Shown here piece by piece: positions 24,033 through 32,566 of a stretch of DNA of 64,000 nucleotides (within the stretch, counting starts at the first letter, position 1; each line of letters starts with the position of its first letter). Origin of the DNA: Leptolyngbyaceae cyanobacterium. Lineage in GTDB: Bacteria; Cyanobacteriota; Cyanobacteriia; Phormidesmidales; Phormidesmidaceae. A program made the translations under genes and the position numbers. The notes under the pieces were generated by a model. That model worked only from the letters and a program-made list of their open reading frames with translations. It made no database searches and had not been told where the DNA came from. The DNA lies in assembly GCA_965263355.1 (NCBI GenBank), contig CBDHHL010000032.1, forward strand, positions 1,440,001 to 1,504,000, given 5' to 3'.

Positions 24033-24641
24033 TCACAAGAATAGCTCACCCATTAACAATTTATCCGTAGCCAACGTTAACGTTGGAAATACCAATGATT
24101 GAATAAGTTTAGAGTTGTCATAATAATGCTCTTTATAAGTCTCATTTATGAGAGTACAAACAACAACCTGCTGTCTATGGCGATCAATAATCCAATACTC
24201 TGGAACTTGCCACCATTCATACTGTTGCCGTTTCCATTCATAATCACGCCGATAGTTTGCACTACCTTCACTGCCTGGGCTAACAATTTCAGCGATAAAT
24301 ACGGGGGCAGGCATGTCGAAGAGGATAGCATTCTTCTTCAGACCTTTCATTAGATCGAGATGCTCAGGCTGTAGGACAATCACATCCGGTTTTCGATTTA
24401 CTCGATTATCACCCACCGGATGCACCTGTATTTCGGTGGAAGAACTCCTAACAAGCCGTCTATTGCTGACAAATTTCTTTAATAACTCAGCCAATTCGTC
24501 AGCAATAAAGTCATTTTCCGCATCTTCCGGTGGCAACTCAATTACCTCTCCAGTACTAAGCAAGCGAAAATTACCATCCGGACTGAGGTCAGCGTCCAGA
24601 TACTGTGAGTAAGTCCTATATCGTATAGATGTGTGGATCAA
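24033..24641 (-). CDS. Uma2-family (DUF820) endonuclease
   Basis: RKPDVIV, AEIVSPG, RDYEWKRQQY, PEYWIID. Confidence 0.9.
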   Translation of the reverse strand: MIHTSIRYRTYSQYLDADLSPDGNFRLLSTGEVIELPPEDAENDFIADELAELLKKFVSNRRLVRSSSTEIQVHPVGDNRVNRKPDVIVLQPEHLDLMKGLKKNAILFDMPAPVFIAEIVSPGSEGSANYRRDYEWKRQQYEWWQVPEYWIIDRHRQQVVVCTLINETYKEHYYDNSKLIQSLVFPTLTLATDKLLMGELFL

Positions 24642-24782: not shown

Positions 24783-25391
24783 TCATAGGGGTGATTGCCC
24801 AATAACATTGCCTGGTGGTCTATAGTTATAAATCATTAATTTTCCATAAATTCTATGGGGTGCGACACCACAGCCAAGCTCCGTGGTATTCTGCCAAATC
24901 ATCTGCGTGTAATGCCCACAGGTTTCACCCTTGCATTGCCCAGTCGATAGATCATAGTTTTCTTTCTCTTCTGCCCATAAACCAAGCATTAACTCTACAG
25001 AACTACCCGCAGCAATGTTTTCCCCTGCTCCACTACGATTACCACTCCTAGGACTATGTCCAAAAGTCCCACGTCGCGATAGCTCATCTGCCCAATCTTG
25101 ATCGGTGCTAGCTAACTCGGAAGACCACGATAAAGATGGCACATTAACCTCAGCTCGCAGCTGATTATGGGTATCGAGTATTTCTTGCTCTTCCTCAGTA
25201 AGCTGTGAGGAATCTTCTGATTGCTCAGGAGTTTGCTGTAGCCTTAGGTCATTCAATAATTGTTCAACATCTGCAGACCAATTTTCTTCGTTTAAGAAAT
25301 CTTCAACTGCTGGAGACTCAAAGGCTTCTTCTAAGTCAAACGTTTCTCTGGTTAGAGTTTCAGCTACTAAAACCCCACCGACACCACCCAT
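24783..25391 (-). CDS. CAP (SCP/PR-1) domain protein, possibly 5'-eroded
   Basis: HNQLRAEV..LSWS, GENIA, CGHYTQMIW, LGCG, NYRPPGN. Confidence 0.8.
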   Translation of the reverse strand: MGGVGGVLVAETLTRETFDLEEAFESPAVEDFLNEENWSADVEQLLNDLRLQQTPEQSEDSSQLTEEEQEILDTHNQLRAEVNVPSLSWSSELASTDQDWADELSRRGTFGHSPRSGNRSGAGENIAAGSSVELMLGLWAEEKENYDLSTGQCKGETCGHYTQMIWQNTTELGCGVAPHRIYGKLMIYNYRPPGNVIGQSPL

Positions 25392-25621
25392 ATCACTTGC
25401 GAAACGTAATGATAAGCGCTTTTACAATTTCAAACTTACCTTGATCTTATAGGTCCCCATAACCCTGATCGCAATTCACCGTCATAGTCTCTAGGGTAGA
25501 TGATGCCCTTCAAGAAATCGACTGGCGATGATTCTGTTCCAAGCAATAGGATTGTTCTAGCCCTAAGCTTTTTCAATTGCATAGGTAGCTATGTACATTG
25601 CAAAACCCTAGGGCAGTAACA

Positions 25622-26083
25622 TTAAAATTGAGACCATTGGCCAATCTTAAAGCTTGTTTGACTGTGGTGATTAAAGCCACTGATACAGTTGTGGGTAGAT
25701 GAATTGCCATCTAGGCGAAACTCATCCTCAAGAGCTTTTGCATTGATATGAAAGCCTCTGAAAAGATTACGCTGGCATTCAGCATCCATAGTAATAAGAT
25801 AGATTTGTTTTGGCTGTCCATTGACACCTGCATCTCTCATGTTTGGACGACTCATTTTGAGTTTTGATAGTCTAGTTTGAAAAGTTGCTACAGAGGGGGC
25901 TGTTGTTCGGCTTTCAAACACACAATCGGTGCAGCCGTACAACTCAATGCCGTTACCGAGCAAATCGCTACCATCTCTAATATCAGAAGCCGTGTCTGGA
26001 TAGAATAGAGCATTGCCGTTCGAGTCTTTTTGCCCAGTTGGCACGGGAGTTGGTGTGCCAATGCCAATTTTTCGAAATGTCAT
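25622..26083 (-). CDS. Hypothetical protein (possibly a gene fragment)
   Basis: 153-aa ORF with no recognised motif. Confidence 0.35.
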   Translation of the reverse strand: MTFRKIGIGTPTPVPTGQKDSNGNALFYPDTASDIRDGSDLLGNGIELYGCTDCVFESRTTAPSVATFQTRLSKLKMSRPNMRDAGVNGQPKQIYLITMDAECQRNLFRGFHINAKALEDEFRLDGNSSTHNCISGFNHHSQTSFKIGQWSQF

Positions 26084-26402
26084 GCCATGGCAGTTTCTGA
26101 GTCGATAGATGGGCTTTTCTGCAGTTCCTTCGTTAGCATGTATTATCTCTAGCTCGGAATAGTATTAAGCAATTGCAAAGGAAACCTTGTTTGGATTCAG
26201 CTGATTTTTCTGGTCCCTTTTAGGAGTTTGGTATTGGAATTGCGATCGCATCTATGCCGATTTTATTTTGCGATCGCACCCACCTAACTGGCTGTTATGC
26301 TCAGCTTAATTTGTAACACCTCACAAAATTTCCAGGGAGGGAGTCAAAAAAACAGCAAAGGTCATCTATAACCAAAGCCTTTAGTGAAAGACAGTATTCA
26401 AG

Positions 26403-28475
26403 TTAGAGAGTTATGTCTGGTGCAAACAAGCTTTGAAGTCTTAGCAGTTGTGCACCTCTTAAATACAACAAATCCCCCTTACCCAGCAGGTTGACTGCAT
26501 CTCCTTGCTTACCACCTAGGATAATCGCTGAATCAGCATCGCTTGCTGTTCTCAGGGCAACTCGTCCAGGCAAATTGGAACGAATCAGCGGGGTAACCAC
26601 CTGGGCATCGGGTCGTTGGGTAGCAATGATGAGATGAATGCCAGCAGCACGGGCCATGGCTCCCAGACGTTTGATGCTTTGTTCTATGGCAGTGCGGCTT
26701 TCTTTTTCTGCCATAAAGTCGGCATATTCATCAAAAATGCAAACAATTCGAGATATGGGGCTGCTGACCTTCTGATTGTAGCGAGTCAAATCTGTACAGC
26801 GGCTCTGCTCAAATCGTTGGTAGCGGCGATCCATCTCATTCATCAAAGTCTCCATCAAAGAGATCGCACCTTCGGTATCTTTTACAATGGGCTGTAATAA
26901 CCAGGGATTGGCTTCAAATTCGGGAAATGTGACGCGTTTGGGATCTACCAGCGCAATTTGTAAATGATCTGGAGAGTGGCGCTTTAGTAGACTTAGGAGG
27001 AGCGATCTCAAAAATTCACTTTTACCACTGCCGGTCGTCCCACCCACTAAAAAATGACAGGTATTGGGATCTGATAAATCTGCTTCAACTAAGTTACCTT
27101 CCAAATTAACACCAATAGCAATTTTGACCGGATCAGTAGGTGTCAGAGCCTGAGGCTGAATATATTGGTCAAACAGGGCAGACTGACGATCTGGGCGAGG
27201 TAAATCAACACTGACATAGCCTGCCTGGGGCGCAATCATTGGCGGAGCTTCCAGACCGAGCTGTACCCGTAAATCATCGGTCAGGCGCAGGATAGAATTC
27301 ACTTTCACACCCAGCTGCGGTTTGAGTTTGACTCGCAAGAAAGCAGGGGCTAAGGCAATTCCTTGTAAATCAACGCCAACGCCAAAGGATTTTAAGGTTT
27401 TTACCAGGTGCGCAGCGATCTCTTCTGATTTTTCTGGTTTTCGTGCCTTCTCTTTTGGTGTCGATGTTGGTGATGTCTTGGGAGGTCTGGGCGGCTTAAA
27501 CTCTTCAGACCTGGTCGATTTATCAGTGTTGCTAGATGTTGGTTTTTGAGAAGACGGTTCGGTTTTCTGTTTTTCTTTAGGAGCTGCTTCCGTTGCCTGG
27601 GTTTGAGGCTCAAAATAGGTTTGACACTTTTTATACTGAGGACACATATCACATAGGTCCAGCCGCAGCGTTTTCGGGGGTGGAGGGTCCTGGCCAGGAT
27701 TCCAGGCTAGCCAGTCACGGATATGCATAAGCTTTTGAGGAATCAGCTGATGTACCGTATCTTCTAGCTGAGCCCAAGGATACACCTGTTCTTGCCAATC
27801 GGGTAATACGCTATAAACTGCAGAATCGATGGGAACACCAATCTTTTCCCGCAGCATATAGCTATAGAGGGCGACTTGGGCTAGCTGAGCGGACGGATCC
27901 GGCGACTGATAGGTCTTATATTCCACCACACAGAGTCGATGATTAGCAAAGTCATACACCAGGCTGTCAAAACGTCCCTGTACTAACTGCTGGTCATTGT
28001 TGGGCAGAGTAAATGTATGTTTGACACTGAGTTCCTGGCCTAAAAATGTTTTTTGCATCACCTCCTGGGTGCTACAGGAACGACGATTGCTCACTAGTAG
28101 CTCTACCCAACGTTGAATAAGTCCCTTCAGGCCTTGCCAGAGCTGATGAAGTGCCTGGGCTTTATCGGGTTTCTCAGCAATAGTTTGCTGGAGATAGGGA
28201 AAAAAGATTATTTGGTAAAGTCGTTGTTCAAAGTTTTGTGCGATCGCTACACTATCCAGTTGTTCTGGATCCGCTGCTAACAATGTTTCAAATTCCAGAT
28301 CAGACCGCAGCTGTCGTACAAATTGCTCAGAAAGCTGGTGGAATGCACTACCAATACCCAGAGTCTTCCCTGGTGGTAAAAACATAGTCATCCCACCAAA
28401 ATGATGGCCTAAATAGAGCAAACGGGGGCACTCAAAGGCAATTCGAACTTTACTAACACTCAAAGAAGAAGTCAT
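26403..28475 (-). CDS. Cas4/AddB-like PD-(D/E)XK nuclease fused to an FtsK/SpoIIIE motor domain
   Basis: FECPR plus CDMCPQYKKC (4 Cys), GRFD..VEYKT..QVALY; linker; GGTTGSGKS, IFDEYAD, IATQRP, LLGKGDLL. ATG at 28475 overlaps the upstream TGA (ATGA). Confidence 0.9.
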   Translation of the reverse strand: MTSSLSVSKVRIAFECPRLLYLGHHFGGMTMFLPPGKTLGIGSAFHQLSEQFVRQLRSDLEFETLLAADPEQLDSVAIAQNFEQRLYQIIFFPYLQQTIAEKPDKAQALHQLWQGLKGLIQRWVELLVSNRRSCSTQEVMQKTFLGQELSVKHTFTLPNNDQQLVQGRFDSLVYDFANHRLCVVEYKTYQSPDPSAQLAQVALYSYMLREKIGVPIDSAVYSVLPDWQEQVYPWAQLEDTVHQLIPQKLMHIRDWLAWNPGQDPPPPKTLRLDLCDMCPQYKKCQTYFEPQTQATEAAPKEKQKTEPSSQKPTSSNTDKSTRSEEFKPPRPPKTSPTSTPKEKARKPEKSEEIAAHLVKTLKSFGVGVDLQGIALAPAFLRVKLKPQLGVKVNSILRLTDDLRVQLGLEAPPMIAPQAGYVSVDLPRPDRQSALFDQYIQPQALTPTDPVKIAIGVNLEGNLVEADLSDPNTCHFLVGGTTGSGKSEFLRSLLLSLLKRHSPDHLQIALVDPKRVTFPEFEANPWLLQPIVKDTEGAISLMETLMNEMDRRYQRFEQSRCTDLTRYNQKVSSPISRIVCIFDEYADFMAEKESRTAIEQSIKRLGAMARAAGIHLIIATQRPDAQVVTPLIRSNLPGRVALRTASDADSAIILGGKQGDAVNLLGKGDLLYLRGAQLLRLQSLFAPDITL

Positions 28476-30463
28476 GCGGGGACGTAGCAAATTAACTGGG
28501 CTTCACGGCTTGCCTGGGGATCAAGCAGTTGCAGACGTTTCTGATCACAGAGGGTTTGAATTTCTTGTTCAATCTCCTGCTCCTTAATATTAGAGAACTG
28601 TTGCCGTGTTGTTTCAATTAATACCAGCAGTCCAATAAAGGATTGTGTTGCCATCAGGTTAACAATATAATCTGCTACGGCTTGGCTGGGGGGTGTAGGT
28701 TCCAAGTCACCTTCCACAATCTGTAATTTTTGCAATAGGGGACACTGATCTAACACCCCTGATTCTCGCACAACAGCCTGCAAGTCTTTCAGATGAGGTG
28801 TTTGATCACCCAGCACTAGCTCGCCAGCGCGGGCGGCACTGGCAAGCTGATGATAGGTTTCCAAATATTGCACCGAGAGTAAATCGGGCTGAAAATGGGC
28901 ATAGGATGCTTTACCATTAAATATCTGATAATAGATTTGATTTCCTTTGGTTTTTGACTTGCCTGTGCCAGCGGCACGAATTAAATAAAGGCAATCACAA
29001 ATGTCTTTATCAATTGCTTTCTGACAGGCTTTCATCACATGAAAGAATGTGTTCATGTTTGGGTCTTCATTCCAAACGATACCCATTTTCAATTTTTTGT
29101 GTCGATGTGAGAGAGAGTAAGATGCATATTTACTACCTTGCAAAAACTGAGTTTCTATTTGGGAGACCTCCAGAGCCTCTAATACCTGACGTAGCCGCCA
29201 GATCAATTCTGGAGAAGTAAACTGGCCAATTCGTGTTACAGCTTTTTGGTTTGCCTGAAATTCTTTATCCCAAATCAGTTGAAAGCTAGGTTTTAGAGCT
29301 GGTGGCGGTGACGGTGACGGTGGCGGTGGCGAAACTGATTTATCGGGAAGTTTACTGTACTGCTTATAGTGGGTAATTAATCTTCGACCCAGATCTAGCG
29401 CTGTACGGGGTAAAGTGCGTTTTCCAGGAAATGCGTGAGCAAGCCAGTCGTGACTAAGGGGAGCAATCTCAGTTTCCGGCGTTGGTGTGACCTGAGCATG
29501 TAGAGGTGCTAACCGACTTGCCCACAATGCTTCTGCTTGATCCAAATTAATTCGTTTAAGCCGCAAGATGTCATTGATGCGTGCCTCGTCTGCTGGTTGA
29601 ATCTGTTTACGATATTCGCGCCAGGTACCTGTCACAATACTGATAAGTACTAAAAAATTATGCAGATTTTCATTATGAATTGTGGTGTTTAGATGGAATA
29701 ACCGCTGCAGATCGGGTTTATTATTGGCTAGCCTGGGAATACTATCTAAGTTGTCAAAACATAGAACAATCGGCTGAGTAGAAGTGGCAATGCGCCCAAT
29801 GTTATTGAGTATCTTTTGCGCGGCGTCTTCAGAATCGATCGGCTGCTTTACTCGCAGTGTTTTAAGCTCTTCTTTGTCCAGGTTATCGCCTTTTAACCAG
29901 GCATAGGCCAGAATACGCAGCTCAGGATTGGTGGCCAAGTCATAAAGTACGCCGAAAAACTCCCTGCCGTTATATACAACTGGGAAGCTGGCATGTAAAT
30001 CTTGAATAAACTTTCCTCGTTCCCCTAGCACCCATTTAGCCAAGCTACGCTGATGCAGACTAGATATCCCCTTAAGCCAGAGCAACATCTGTGATTCCGA
30101 TTGCCCTTCGGGCACTTTAACCAGGCTATCGACCACATTACGTAACGTATGCCGCCAGAGATAGTTACTATCGGGCCAGGGGCCGATGTAGGCAAAAAAA
30201 GCGTTATCGTTGAGCTGCCGCTTTAGACGTCCGAGAAGATAGCTTTTGCCTGCACCTGAATCACCCGTCAATAAAAGTGTTTGAGTTTTGTGATCCGTGC
30301 TAATTTGTTGGAGAGTATGACTTATGGCGTCCAGAATTTCTCCATGGATAGTGTCAACTTCCATGACTGTGTTTTGGCTTTCCTGCCAAAAATTACCAGG
30401 TCGGAAGCTACTCCGATCAAAAGGGTTTAACTGACGCTGAATAATCTGTTGAAGCGAAGTCAC
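28472..30463 (-). CDS. rcaG: P-loop AAA-type ATPase, RcaG-like
   Basis: NPFD..PGNFWQE, Walker A GDSGAGKS, Walker B VLCFDNLD; C-terminal winged-helix-like segment; follows the rcaD-like gene. Confidence 0.7.
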   Translation of the reverse strand: MTSLQQIIQRQLNPFDRSSFRPGNFWQESQNTVMEVDTIHGEILDAISHTLQQISTDHKTQTLLLTGDSGAGKSYLLGRLKRQLNDNAFFAYIGPWPDSNYLWRHTLRNVVDSLVKVPEGQSESQMLLWLKGISSLHQRSLAKWVLGERGKFIQDLHASFPVVYNGREFFGVLYDLATNPELRILAYAWLKGDNLDKEELKTLRVKQPIDSEDAAQKILNNIGRIATSTQPIVLCFDNLDSIPRLANNKPDLQRLFHLNTTIHNENLHNFLVLISIVTGTWREYRKQIQPADEARINDILRLKRINLDQAEALWASRLAPLHAQVTPTPETEIAPLSHDWLAHAFPGKRTLPRTALDLGRRLITHYKQYSKLPDKSVSPPPPSPSPPPALKPSFQLIWDKEFQANQKAVTRIGQFTSPELIWRLRQVLEALEVSQIETQFLQGSKYASYSLSHRHKKLKMGIVWNEDPNMNTFFHVMKACQKAIDKDICDCLYLIRAAGTGKSKTKGNQIYYQIFNGKASYAHFQPDLLSVQYLETYHQLASAARAGELVLGDQTPHLKDLQAVVRESGVLDQCPLLQKLQIVEGDLEPTPPSQAVADYIVNLMATQSFIGLLVLIETTRQQFSNIKEQEIEQEIQTLCDQKRLQLLDPQASREAQLICYVPA

Positions 30464-30506
30464 TGTTTTTGATCTACTTTTTTAACAACGTAATATTATT
30501 TTCTAT

Positions 30507-31406
30507 TCACTCGATTACACTGATATAGAACAAAGCACCGCCGATTGGTTGGGAAATCCCTGCTGCTGCTTGTTCTTCACTGTATTCAATAACATCTTGT
30601 AGGGTGCTGAATTCAATTAGATCCTGACTTTGTAATTCAAACAAGATTTTGTCTAAACCATTTCGGTCGAGGGGCGGCTGTAACTTTTCTCGCAAATGAA
30701 AGATTGGTAGAAAATTGTCCGTATCTAATTGTTGATCCAGTATTCTAATAGTTTCTAGCACCGACTCTGGCGATATATCACTAACGTTGGCAATGATCTG
30801 AGAAGGTGCTAAATATTGTTTCTCTGTTAAACCAGATTGGTTTTTAGGAAAAATTTCAGCTATTTCAGACTTACCTAAAAACTGTCGTAGAAAAGATAGG
30901 TAGTTGCCCAACAGTGCAAACTTTAGATCAGCTCTAGGTTGAGTTGGCATATAGTCATGTAAGAGATAGCGAATGCCATCTTGGGTTAACCAGACATCTT
31001 TGATCTGATCTTTAGTGATCTGAATCAACCCTTGAGCATCAAGTTCATAAAGCAATCGGTGTCGATCTTCCGCTGGTACCTTCTTAGCTTGACTAGGTGT
31101 AGTATAGGATTTAGCTTGCGCTGCTTTTTGCAGTAGTTCTAACTTATGCGGAGATAAGGTTATAGATAACTGCTCGGGGTCTGAATTCAGCAAACTTTTA
31201 CCAGGTGGTTCTATCCGATATCGTTGTACTTCGTTTGCATACCCTATCAACCCCTTAGCACAGAGGCTCTCGCATGCTTTATTCCGTTTTGATGTATTGC
31301 CTACTTCAATTTTACTGATACGAGTTCGATAGTCTGGGATATTTCCCAACAACCGCAGCAAAAATTTTAATTCTATAGATTCTAATTTGAGCGAAGATAG
31401 ATCCAT
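30507..31406 (-). CDS. rcaD: RcaD-like multi-winged-helix DNA-binding protein
   Basis: ELKFLLRLLG, VWLTQDGIRYL, LDTDNFLPIFHLREKLQPPL, GISQPIGGALFYI recalled as RcaD-family motifs; ATG at 31406 preferred. Confidence 0.75.
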   Translation of the reverse strand: MDLSSLKLESIELKFLLRLLGNIPDYRTRISKIEVGNTSKRNKACESLCAKGLIGYANEVQRYRIEPPGKSLLNSDPEQLSITLSPHKLELLQKAAQAKSYTTPSQAKKVPAEDRHRLLYELDAQGLIQITKDQIKDVWLTQDGIRYLLHDYMPTQPRADLKFALLGNYLSFLRQFLGKSEIAEIFPKNQSGLTEKQYLAPSQIIANVSDISPESVLETIRILDQQLDTDNFLPIFHLREKLQPPLDRNGLDKILFELQSQDLIEFSTLQDVIEYSEEQAAAGISQPIGGALFYISVIE

Positions 31407-31684
31407 AGGATTTATGGTTTCGATAGCAATAGAACATTTCAATCAGCATAAAAAAATTAGAACTTCATAAATAGAAGGACTATTGCTTCTTGTATGAACT
31501 GATTATTCCCTATAGTTTATGAAGGTAGCTCAAACACGTCGAGGCTTCTTTATAAAAGCTATAAGATCTTGCGATAGTTCCATCTTTATGCGTCAAAGTC
31601 AAGCATTCATGGTAGCTGCTGTTTCAGCGTCATAGCCCATTCGGACGTCCCCAAATGGCTAAAGTAAGAAAAACCTCGTAAACG

Positions 31685-32287
31685 ATGGTCTACAGTGACT
31701 TTACAATCAATGCTATTAAAAGGCAGTTTGGGGTGGAGCTGATTGAAGATCAGGCGTTGTTTGCTAATGTTGAGTCCCAGATGCCGCCCCAGTGGTTATC
31801 GGACTTTTTAGAGATGCACCTACCCCTAGCTAACGCCATTGGCACAGAGAAAGCCAAGTCAGAATTTATTGTAGCTCCGATTTTATCGGCTGCTCGGGAG
31901 TTGTTAGAACGCCAGATTAGTTTGTTCTCTGGAATTGAGTTTACGGTGGATAAGGAGTAGGGGCTAACCGGACACTGTGATTAGATTCTTAGTCGGTCGC
32001 GATCGCAATACAGTCTCTCAGCCCCTGTCCTGACATTAGTCGAAACCAAAAATGGTCGTGCCAGATTAGGTCAATGCATGGTAGAAATGATTGCCGCAGA
32101 TCTGTTCAACCGCCAGGAAGAAAATGATCTTACAACAATCTTTGGCCGTGTTACCACAGGAGATCTGTGGCGGTTTCTAAAGCTTCAATGAGCAAATGAG
32201 CAAAAAACCATTTTCATCGACACCAAACAATACTTTGCGACAGAGGTAGACGAACTACTAGGAATCTTGAAAAACATAGTCTTATAG
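31685..32287 (+). pseudogene. Pseudogene of a cyanobacterial restriction-endonuclease-like hypothetical family
   Basis: One frame, MVYSDF..TEKAKSEFIVAPIL..GHCD..VETK..GQCMVEMIAA..VTTGDLWRFLKL, broken by three in-frame stops (first at 31958-31960). Confidence 0.8.
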
Positions 32288-32566
32288 GGACATGCTCTTG
32301 TGACTGTCTTTCCAGCTTAAAGCAACTGAAGCCATACATACAGAAGGTGTTGCTCAGGACTAAATAGAGCAGCAACAATTTCTGTGACAAAATCTTTTAG
32401 AGGAATACTCCCTGTTTGAAAGCTGAACTGACTAATCTTTAAATTGCGATCGCCCGTTGCCCAACCCGATGAACGAATTAACAAAATCAGTGAATTTCGG
32501 TCATTTTCCAGCCTACCCGTCATACTCAAAATGACCCAACGCAAACCCGACTGATCCCCCATTCCC

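Follow-up and report, generated by a model that had tools for sequence, protein, structure and literature searches.

Two bodies of work describe the closest known relatives of a three-gene operon that occupies positions 26403-31406 of a 64-kb stretch of DNA from a Leptolyngbyaceae cyanobacterium (the whole stretch is called the window below). The first is the prediction in 2024, by comparative genomics, by Rakesh, Aravind and Krishnan (Nucleic Acids Res, PMC10853773), of a class of Orc/CDC6-coupled "HerA/FtsK capture" systems. As laid out in the sections of that paper that deal with them, these systems consist of an Orc/CDC6 ATPase whose C-terminal winged helix is preceded by an inserted, inactive restriction-endonuclease domain; an active nuclease of the restriction-endonuclease fold together with a HerA/FtsK motor, which in one subset includes FtsK-alpha; and a separate, fast-evolving protein with 2-4 winged helices. 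In some members a 3'-5' exonuclease is fused to the motor. The systems were called "mobile gene neighborhoods" and were proposed to capture and restrict invader DNA, a model repeated in the pertinent part of a 2026 paper (PMC12839542). The second body of work concerns RcaD and RcaG, named in Calothrix (Fremyella/Tolypothrix) PCC 7601 by Noubir et al. 2002, as cited in PMC2799420. According to the passages of PMC2799420 that cite it, RcaD bound to the cpc2 promoter and changed how red-light operons are expressed, and RcaG was proposed as a binding aid; the article's section on Lyngbya reports that an RcaD homologue there binds DNA in gel-shift assays and that its gene adjoins an RcaG-like gene. 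Our literature search found no paper that joins the work on RcaD and cyanobacteria with that on FtsK-nuclease capture systems: the main text of PMC10853773 has 0 occurrences of "cyanobacter", "RcaD" or "RcaG", and RcaD is absent from the relevant sections of both capture-system papers (PMC10853773, PMC12839542). Here we describe an operon in which genes of the rcaD and rcaG families appear to form one unit with a gene for a nuclease::FtsK fusion, and we propose that it may be a cyanobacterial member of the capture class.

The original prediction for this DNA, made from its letters alone, had placed three co-oriented genes at this position, and the open reading frames (ORFs) of the window bear this out: three minus-strand ORFs, tightly packed and in the same orientation, lie at the coordinates that it gave. 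The rcaD-like gene occupies 30507-31406; its longest frame extends to 31442, and initiation at the ATG at 31406, the form found in databases, yields a protein of 299 amino acids (P0004). The rcaG-like gene (28472-30463) encodes a predicted ATPase of the ORC/Cdc6 clade of AAA+ proteins with 663 amino acids. The nuclease::FtsK fusion gene (26403-28475, with a frame open to 28490) starts at the ATG at 28475 and encodes 690 amino acids (P0088). Coordinates and translations also agree with the predicted ATGA overlap of the last two genes at 28472-28475: the rcaG stop codon is 28472-28474, and the methionine codon at 28473-28475 is the sixth of the long fusion frame. In the closest relatives (L001-L004 and L008) the match to the fusion start likewise begins 13-16 bases before the RcaG match ends. 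Consensus scans of 25300-32400 gave no usable signal for promoters (6 sites versus 11.4 in shuffled sequences) or for terminators (4 versus 6.2).

Searches with an RcaD profile yielded 332 relatives in species-representative genomes, and all locus counts given here refer to the best 80 of these 332. RcaG lies directly after RcaD in 80/80 loci, the nuclease domain is present in 61, and both nuclease and motor in 55. Among the 19 nuclease-less loci, 10 end no more than 1.3 kb past rcaG, and the other 9 have at least 4.2 kb of downstream DNA without a nuclease. Across a sample of 251 genomes from the phylum, the full fusion is present in 31 and RcaD in 36. Every one of the 31 fusion carriers has RcaD, and in 29 of them the two genes lie on the same strand within about 5 kb of each other, which answers in the affirmative a question raised by the original prediction, namely whether the fusion is regularly found near RcaD. 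We also sampled 151 genomes of one heterocystous cyanobacterial family (counts uncorrected for shared ancestry). Strong fusion matches were present in 76 of these and RcaD in 84: both in 75, RcaD only in 9, a fusion fragment only in 1, and neither in 66. At least three of the 66 genomes with neither (G317, G351 and G049) retain motor fragments, and RcaD and the fusion have decayed jointly in G366, G285, G352, G314 and G315. Collectively, the co-occurrence, the shared loss and the overlapping genes argue that the three genes are one conserved functional unit. As judged from these sequences, the coupling of RcaD to the fusion is not due to chance, the arrangement being far beyond what chance would give.

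These data bear on the role that has been assigned to RcaD and RcaG. The first two genes of the operon belong to the same families as RcaD and RcaG of PCC 7601, the assignment of RcaD having been made by way of named homologues, with the PCC 7601 sequence itself outside the comparison. The published role, co-ordination of the expression of phycobiliprotein operons (as cited in PMC2799420), differs from the one considered here. The two proteins could be ordinary transcription regulators of phycobiliprotein operons, next to which the nuclease-FtsK gene is a mere neighbour, and the cpc2 promoter binding, the effect on red-light operons and the proposed assistance by RcaG speak for this (cited in PMC2799420). 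We consider it very improbable in view of the gene overlap, the adjacency in 29/31 genomes, and the shared loss and decay. Moreover, RcaD was not found in 67 of the 151 genomes of the family sample, a family whose members are generally known to make phycobilisomes, and an ORC/Cdc6 fold would be unusual for a transcription cofactor.

The original prediction had also suggested that the complex be modelled. In a complex prediction that paired the fusion with residues 388-663 of RcaG, the score was 0.58 (best of three controls, 0.00), the runs agreed in at least 77% of contacts, and the partner pLDDT was at least 80. The mark applied here is reached by 116 of 157 solved complexes and by 2 of 215 mismatched pairs; at scores of 0.60 or lower it is reached by 18 of the 157 solved complexes and by both of the passing mismatches. 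The model thus lends weak support to a contact between the C-terminal half of RcaG and the fusion.

Several loci depart from the three-gene arrangement. Two tandem RcaG paralogues follow RcaD in L035, L041, L053, L059, L064 and L079, with no fusion directly downstream, and L041, L053 and L059 have a stand-alone gene or fragment for a 3'-5' exonuclease a few kilobases further along. In Okeania sp. SIO2F4 (L080 8152-9030) a nuclease domain with 41% identity is followed by about 2 kb more of downstream DNA and no FtsK motor, a stripped-down form. Another genome has an extra nuclease-only frame (G219:C126:13933-14781; 287 amino acids, 45% identical) just upstream of RcaD, besides the downstream fusion. 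Finally, rcaG of Leptolyngbya sp. PCC 7375 (L006 10958-14041; G005:C5:7880387-7883479) is in two pieces about 1 kb apart with stops between them, and something seems to have been inserted in the gene.

The fusion protein matched three Pfam families, PDDEXK_1 (E = 1.2e-12, residues 9-289), FtsK_alpha (1.7e-10) and FtsK_SpoIIIE (9.9e-41), as expected for the nuclease-motor fusion that had been predicted. Its PD-(D/E)XK nuclease domain (27606-28475, minus strand) contains the motifs D...ExK and QxxxY and a cluster of four cysteines, and is of the Cas4/AddB iron-sulphur (Fe-S) type. Residues D175, E190, K192, Q205, Y209 and Cys21/280/283/289 (numbered as in P0003) are kept in 50-51 of 51 orthologues. 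The FtsK alpha and beta (RecA-like) motor domains (26406-27458, minus strand) have Walker A (GGTTGSGKS), Walker B (DEYAD) and TQRP motifs and an arginine, R643, that are invariant in 51/51 orthologues; motor identity across cyanobacterial orders is 65-94%. In PADLOC scans, residues 296-675 matched the motor part of SspH (4.8e-68), and the matches to Cas4 were weak. Cellular FtsK and SpoIIIE share the alpha and beta motor and all of its ATPase motifs with the fusion. However, they possess membrane and gamma (KOPS/XerD) domains, and the fusion is without both: its N-terminal 289 residues are the nuclease domain, in place of a membrane domain (no transmembrane predictor was run), no gamma-domain family was matched at E values up to 0.01, and the protein ends just past the motor.

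In most other lineages the same gene opens with an additional DEDDy 3'-5' exonuclease domain of about 200 amino acids, which in relatives L017, L013 and L072 matches PF01612 at 1e-24 to 2e-30. No such exonuclease is present in the window's fusion protein or elsewhere in the 64-kb window, and the exonuclease-less form is shared by the window's clade and some others, for example Pseudanabaena PCC 7367. When stand-alone exonucleases were sought in five genomes of the window's clade, only DEDDy proteins with 30-35% identity were found, none of them close. Most genomes of the family sample, including those without the operon, have a stand-alone exonuclease-like frame of about 310 amino acids that is 55-60% identical to the exonuclease domain (e.g. 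G002:C1:1473702-1474256).

RcaG matched the Pfam families AAA_16 (1.9e-9) and KAP_NTPase. Its predicted structure (pLDDT 85, pTM 0.83) comprises an AAA+ core (residues ~1-385), an inserted alpha/beta domain (~417-560) and a C-terminal winged helix (586-662). Foldseek matched this model to Orc4, Cdc6 and Orc1 at E values of 5e-5 to 1e-3, and VIA-align matched it to Cdc6 with Z scores of 12.6-13.7 (at Z 12.6, 242 residues aligned with an rmsd of 4.0) and to TnsC with a Z score of 12.4; the C-terminal winged helix gave Z 12. The Walker A residues G67, G70, G72 and K73 and the acidic residue D237 are invariant in 26/26 sequences. No Pfam family was matched in the C-terminal half, save for a weak winged-helix match in one relative, and hhalign comparison of RcaG with the fusion found only the P-loop in common. 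From the predicted structure, we assign RcaG to the ORC/Cdc6-like AAA+ proteins. ORC/Cdc6 (with MCM) and TnsC of Tn7-like transposons have an initiator-clade AAA+ fold like that of the N-terminal half of RcaG (Z 12-14), and they choose DNA sites and bring in ring enzymes or transposases. However, RcaG is not a sequence-level member of these families, and a loader role for it would be by analogy only.

The rcaD-like protein could be assigned to no family in Pfam, NCBIfam or PADLOC. Its homologues are all cyanobacterial, and some of them, with 42-54% identity, are named "transcription factor RcaD" (NCBI/UniRef; P0031, P0066 and P0068). Consistent with the multi-winged-helix protein that had been predicted, the AlphaFold model (pLDDT 79) has three winged-helix units (residues ~10-65, 86-140 and 213-299) and a disordered linker at residues 180-208. 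VIA-align returned generic winged-helix matches (Z 8-9), Foldseek matched nothing at E values up to 1e-3, and a PADLOC scan gave weak matches only, to models carrying winged helices. The C-terminal unit is the most conserved (69-76% identity versus 44-60% for the N-terminal units). Identity between the window's proteins and their relatives is 54-59% for RcaD, 71-76% for RcaG, 80-90% for the nuclease and 88-94% for the motor. Similarly, non-synonymous divergence (dN) from relatives is 0.33-0.36 for RcaD (excluding the comparison of the window with L002, where pN was an implausible 0.73, probably through a slip in codon register) and 0.08-0.14 for the fusion. At the protein level, RcaD has evolved about 4.5-fold faster than the fusion in the comparison with L006 (dN 0.36 versus 0.08). 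Fast evolution of the winged-helix component is also described for the capture systems, in the account given of them in PMC10853773.

Set against the capture class, the operon has most of the expected parts: an AAA+ protein of the Orc/CDC6 clade by Foldseek and VIA-align, a nuclease of the active type with intact motifs, an FtsK motor with FtsK_alpha, and a fast-evolving protein with three winged-helix units. RcaG also has a domain before its C-terminal winged helix, where the class has the inactive nuclease, yet this alpha/beta domain is not identified by any fold match. Fusion of a 3'-5' exonuclease to the motor, which defines one subset of the class, is found in most of the cyanobacterial relatives and not in the window's protein. 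The original prediction had called the machine undescribed, and had named a match to an already named system as a reason to give that up. In this respect it does not stand: the architecture is that of an Orc/CDC6-coupled HerA/FtsK capture system (PMC10853773, in its sections on this class) and largely matches it, though PADLOC v2.0.0 names no system, and the mechanism guessed at the time is the one already predicted for the class.

Other described systems resemble single parts of the operon. DndH and SspH have a C-terminal motor like the FtsK part of the fusion (SspH profile positions 1341-1736 of 1766), but these proteins are about 1,500-1,800 amino acids long with other domains, and the match to the SspH profile is confined to its final ~400 positions. 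Neither SspF/G or DndF/G partners nor phosphorothioate genes turned up next to the triad, and PADLOC gave no partner match for the first two genes. In archaeal HerA-NurA and in bacterial AddAB and RecBCD a DNA motor is coupled to nucleases, as it is in the fusion. Unlike those systems, the fusion carries motor and nuclease in one polypeptide, and its ORC/Cdc6-like and winged-helix partners have no counterpart there.

We therefore put forward, at about an even chance of being right, that this operon represents the Orc/CDC6-coupled HerA/FtsK capture systems in cyanobacteria and is a three-part machine that seizes and degrades DNA. RcaD, the fast-evolving triple winged-helix protein, would recognise a DNA site or structure. 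RcaG, as an ORC/Cdc6-type AAA+ switch, would bind there and recruit or load the FtsK alpha/beta motor, which would form a ring, reel in double-stranded DNA and pass it on to the Cas4/AddB-like Fe-S nuclease of the same polypeptide; in most relatives, but not in the window, the fused 3'-5' exonuclease would receive it too. The most likely role is the destruction of incoming or segregating foreign DNA, such as plasmids, conjugative elements and phage DNA. The domains, the intact catalytic motifs, the conserved coupling and the shared loss are observed directly, and we infer from them every mechanistic step, the target and the role of the operon. The sensor, ATPase loader and cutting motor of the original prediction fare accordingly: the folds fit and the capture proposal, reached independently and set out in PMC10853773, agrees, and the defence role that went with them is putative.

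A number of observations weigh against this proposal, and some of them come from the proteins themselves. The inserted domain of RcaG (~417-560) had no fold or sequence match, including to restriction-endonuclease-like proteins; there was no sign of kinship of RcaD to DndG, SspB or FokI in Foldseek, VIA-align or PADLOC; synonymous divergence (dS) is saturated, and for this reason positive selection on RcaD cannot be demonstrated; the complex score is no stronger than that given above; and PADLOC names no system at the triad. RcaD of Calothrix PCC 7601 is, in addition, reported on host phycobiliprotein promoters (cited in PMC2799420). Others come from the genomic setting. In a quick maximum-likelihood tree of 51 fusion proteins, the branching tracks taxonomy (a heterocystous clade of 34 rows has support 100), unlike what is typical of mobile defence. 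Glycosyltransferases, ParA-like genes, a PALP enzyme, IleRS and a porin recur beside the 80 loci; methyltransferases and known defence genes are not among these recurrent neighbours, and no modification partner that could mark self versus non-self DNA was seen near the triad. Among 72,556 plasmids a single one, a Pseudanabaena megaplasmid with the whole triad, had RcaD, and none of 50,697 phage records had RcaG.

The same tree places the window's fusion with those of Leptolyngbya PCC 7375 and Leptothoe spongobia (support 99). Taken together, the comparisons indicate that cyanobacteria pass the operon on vertically, in a housekeeping neighbourhood, and often lose it. In this the operon departs from the mobile neighbourhoods of the capture class. 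The accessory or defence island that had been predicted is not supported by the tree, the neighbours, or the plasmid and phage counts. The operon is not core either, a possibility raised at the same time: it is present in about half of the family sample and has been lost repeatedly. By these sequence comparisons it behaves neither as a typical mobile defence system nor as a core locus.

This pattern also speaks to the idea that the triad is a mobile element's own apparatus for DNA transfer or replication, an FtsK-like conjugative pump with an ORC-like initiator, which we regard as the least probable of the explanations considered. FtsK-family pumps do serve conjugation, weak matches to TraB and TraD appeared, a conjugative megaplasmid of 328 kb in Pseudanabaena PCC 7367 carries a divergent triad, and the class was called "mobile gene neighborhoods" (PMC10853773, sections on the class). 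However, the 80 loci have no integrase, relaxase or replication gene as a recurrent neighbour of the triad, the chromosomal context in Nostocales is stable, the tree tracks taxonomy, and plasmid carriage is limited to the single record. The megaplasmid copy itself (L081 8902-13861, on pPSE7367.01 of Pseudanabaena sp. PCC 7367) is a complete triad with an RcaD-like protein of 28% identity; beside it are a gene for a phycobiliprotein lyase and a DEAD/DEAH helicase with a SWIM protein.

A more serious alternative, which we consider tenable but rather unlikely, is a host chromosome-handling machine: a soluble, nuclease-bearing FtsK of cyanobacteria with large, polyploid genomes, not aimed at invaders. 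RcaD and RcaG would aim the motor at chromosomal sites, where it would resolve or resect chromosome copies, or clear or cull them, for example during division or after breaks. A more specific form is still more doubtful in our judgement, namely that the operon is the cyanobacterial replacement for FtsK on host DNA, a nuclease-tipped translocase loaded by RcaD and RcaG at specific chromosomal sites in polyploid cells, and that the reported effects of RcaD on phycobiliprotein transcription are a by-product. Among the phylum-sample genomes, 44 of 251 had any FtsK_SpoIIIE match, and in 31 of these 44 the match was the fusion. The fusion was also the sole such match in 3 of 5 genomes examined, and by these sequence matches it is usually the only FtsK-family gene in its genome. 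Chromosome handling would further fit the vertical inheritance, the housekeeping synteny, the ParA-like gene downstream in 24 of 55 complete-fusion loci, the motor identity of 65-94% across orders, the fact that no gene for self versus non-self modification was seen among the neighbours, and the reported binding of RcaD to host promoters (cited in PMC2799420). Against it, the fusion was not found in 220 of the 251 phylum-sample genomes or in about half of the family sample, and pseudogenes are frequent; the operon is therefore dispensable. The fusion is also without a membrane anchor or gamma domain, the DNA-recognition protein RcaD evolves fast, and PMC10853773, in its sections on nuclease-motor fusions with ORC-like ATPases, otherwise counts them among conflict systems. 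Between defence and the handling of host chromosomes, defence is our best guess.

By gene order and evolution, then, RcaD and RcaG, textbook genes of light-colour regulation, look like subunits of a nuclease-tipped DNA pump, which reopens the question of their function. The operon offers a vertically inherited test case for the predicted "HerA/FtsK capture" class, in a three-gene form with intact catalytic sites. To what was already proposed for that class, the present analysis adds that the genes co-occur almost perfectly and are lost together, that in cyanobacteria they behave as vertically inherited, non-mobile genes, that the fusion usually has no other FtsK-family gene beside it in the genome, that the window has a form without the exonuclease, and that the C-terminal half of RcaG has a weak predicted contact with the fusion. 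Most sampled cyanobacteria have no other FtsK-family gene, and the operon bears on how polyploid cyanobacteria deal with their chromosomes and with foreign DNA; that it has been lost repeatedly suggests that it carries a real cost besides a benefit. A 2020 review, in its section on FtsK, lists only HerA/YjgR-type proteins and a plasmid gene as the "FtsK" of three model strains (PMC7766704). We infer that the model strains are without the operon, which would explain why it has gone unstudied.

The genes around the triad vary. The ParA/MinD-like gene noted above lies on the same strand no more than 3 kb downstream of the fusion (e.g. L011 14272-15174). In Oscillatoria and Laspinema loci (e.g. 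L059 11526-13010) there is instead a convergent gene in which an HSDR_N restriction-endonuclease-like domain is fused to a ParA-like ATPase. The window's own flanks are shared with only one of the 80 related loci, that of Leptothoe spongobia (L002). The Uma2 gene, the CAP gene and the nuclease-like pseudogene that had been predicted nearby were all found. Between the fusion and the Uma2-family gene lie a 153-amino-acid ORF that matches no family (25622-26083, minus strand) and the CAP-domain gene (24783-25391, minus strand; Pfam, 3.8e-19), both of them without a counterpart in the 80 related loci. At 31682-32287 on the plus strand are three consecutive short frames of 92, 68 and 31 amino acids. 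The first of these matches the PADLOC PD_DExK model (2.8e-7) and is 89% identical in L002, and the region looks like the remains of a nuclease-like gene that two genomes have retained next to the operon. The Uma2-family gene itself (24033-24641, minus strand) matches its Pfam family at 3.5e-22 and the PADLOC candidate model PDC-S03 at 1.6e-50, and a Uma2 gene with 84% identity also lies downstream of the triad in L002.

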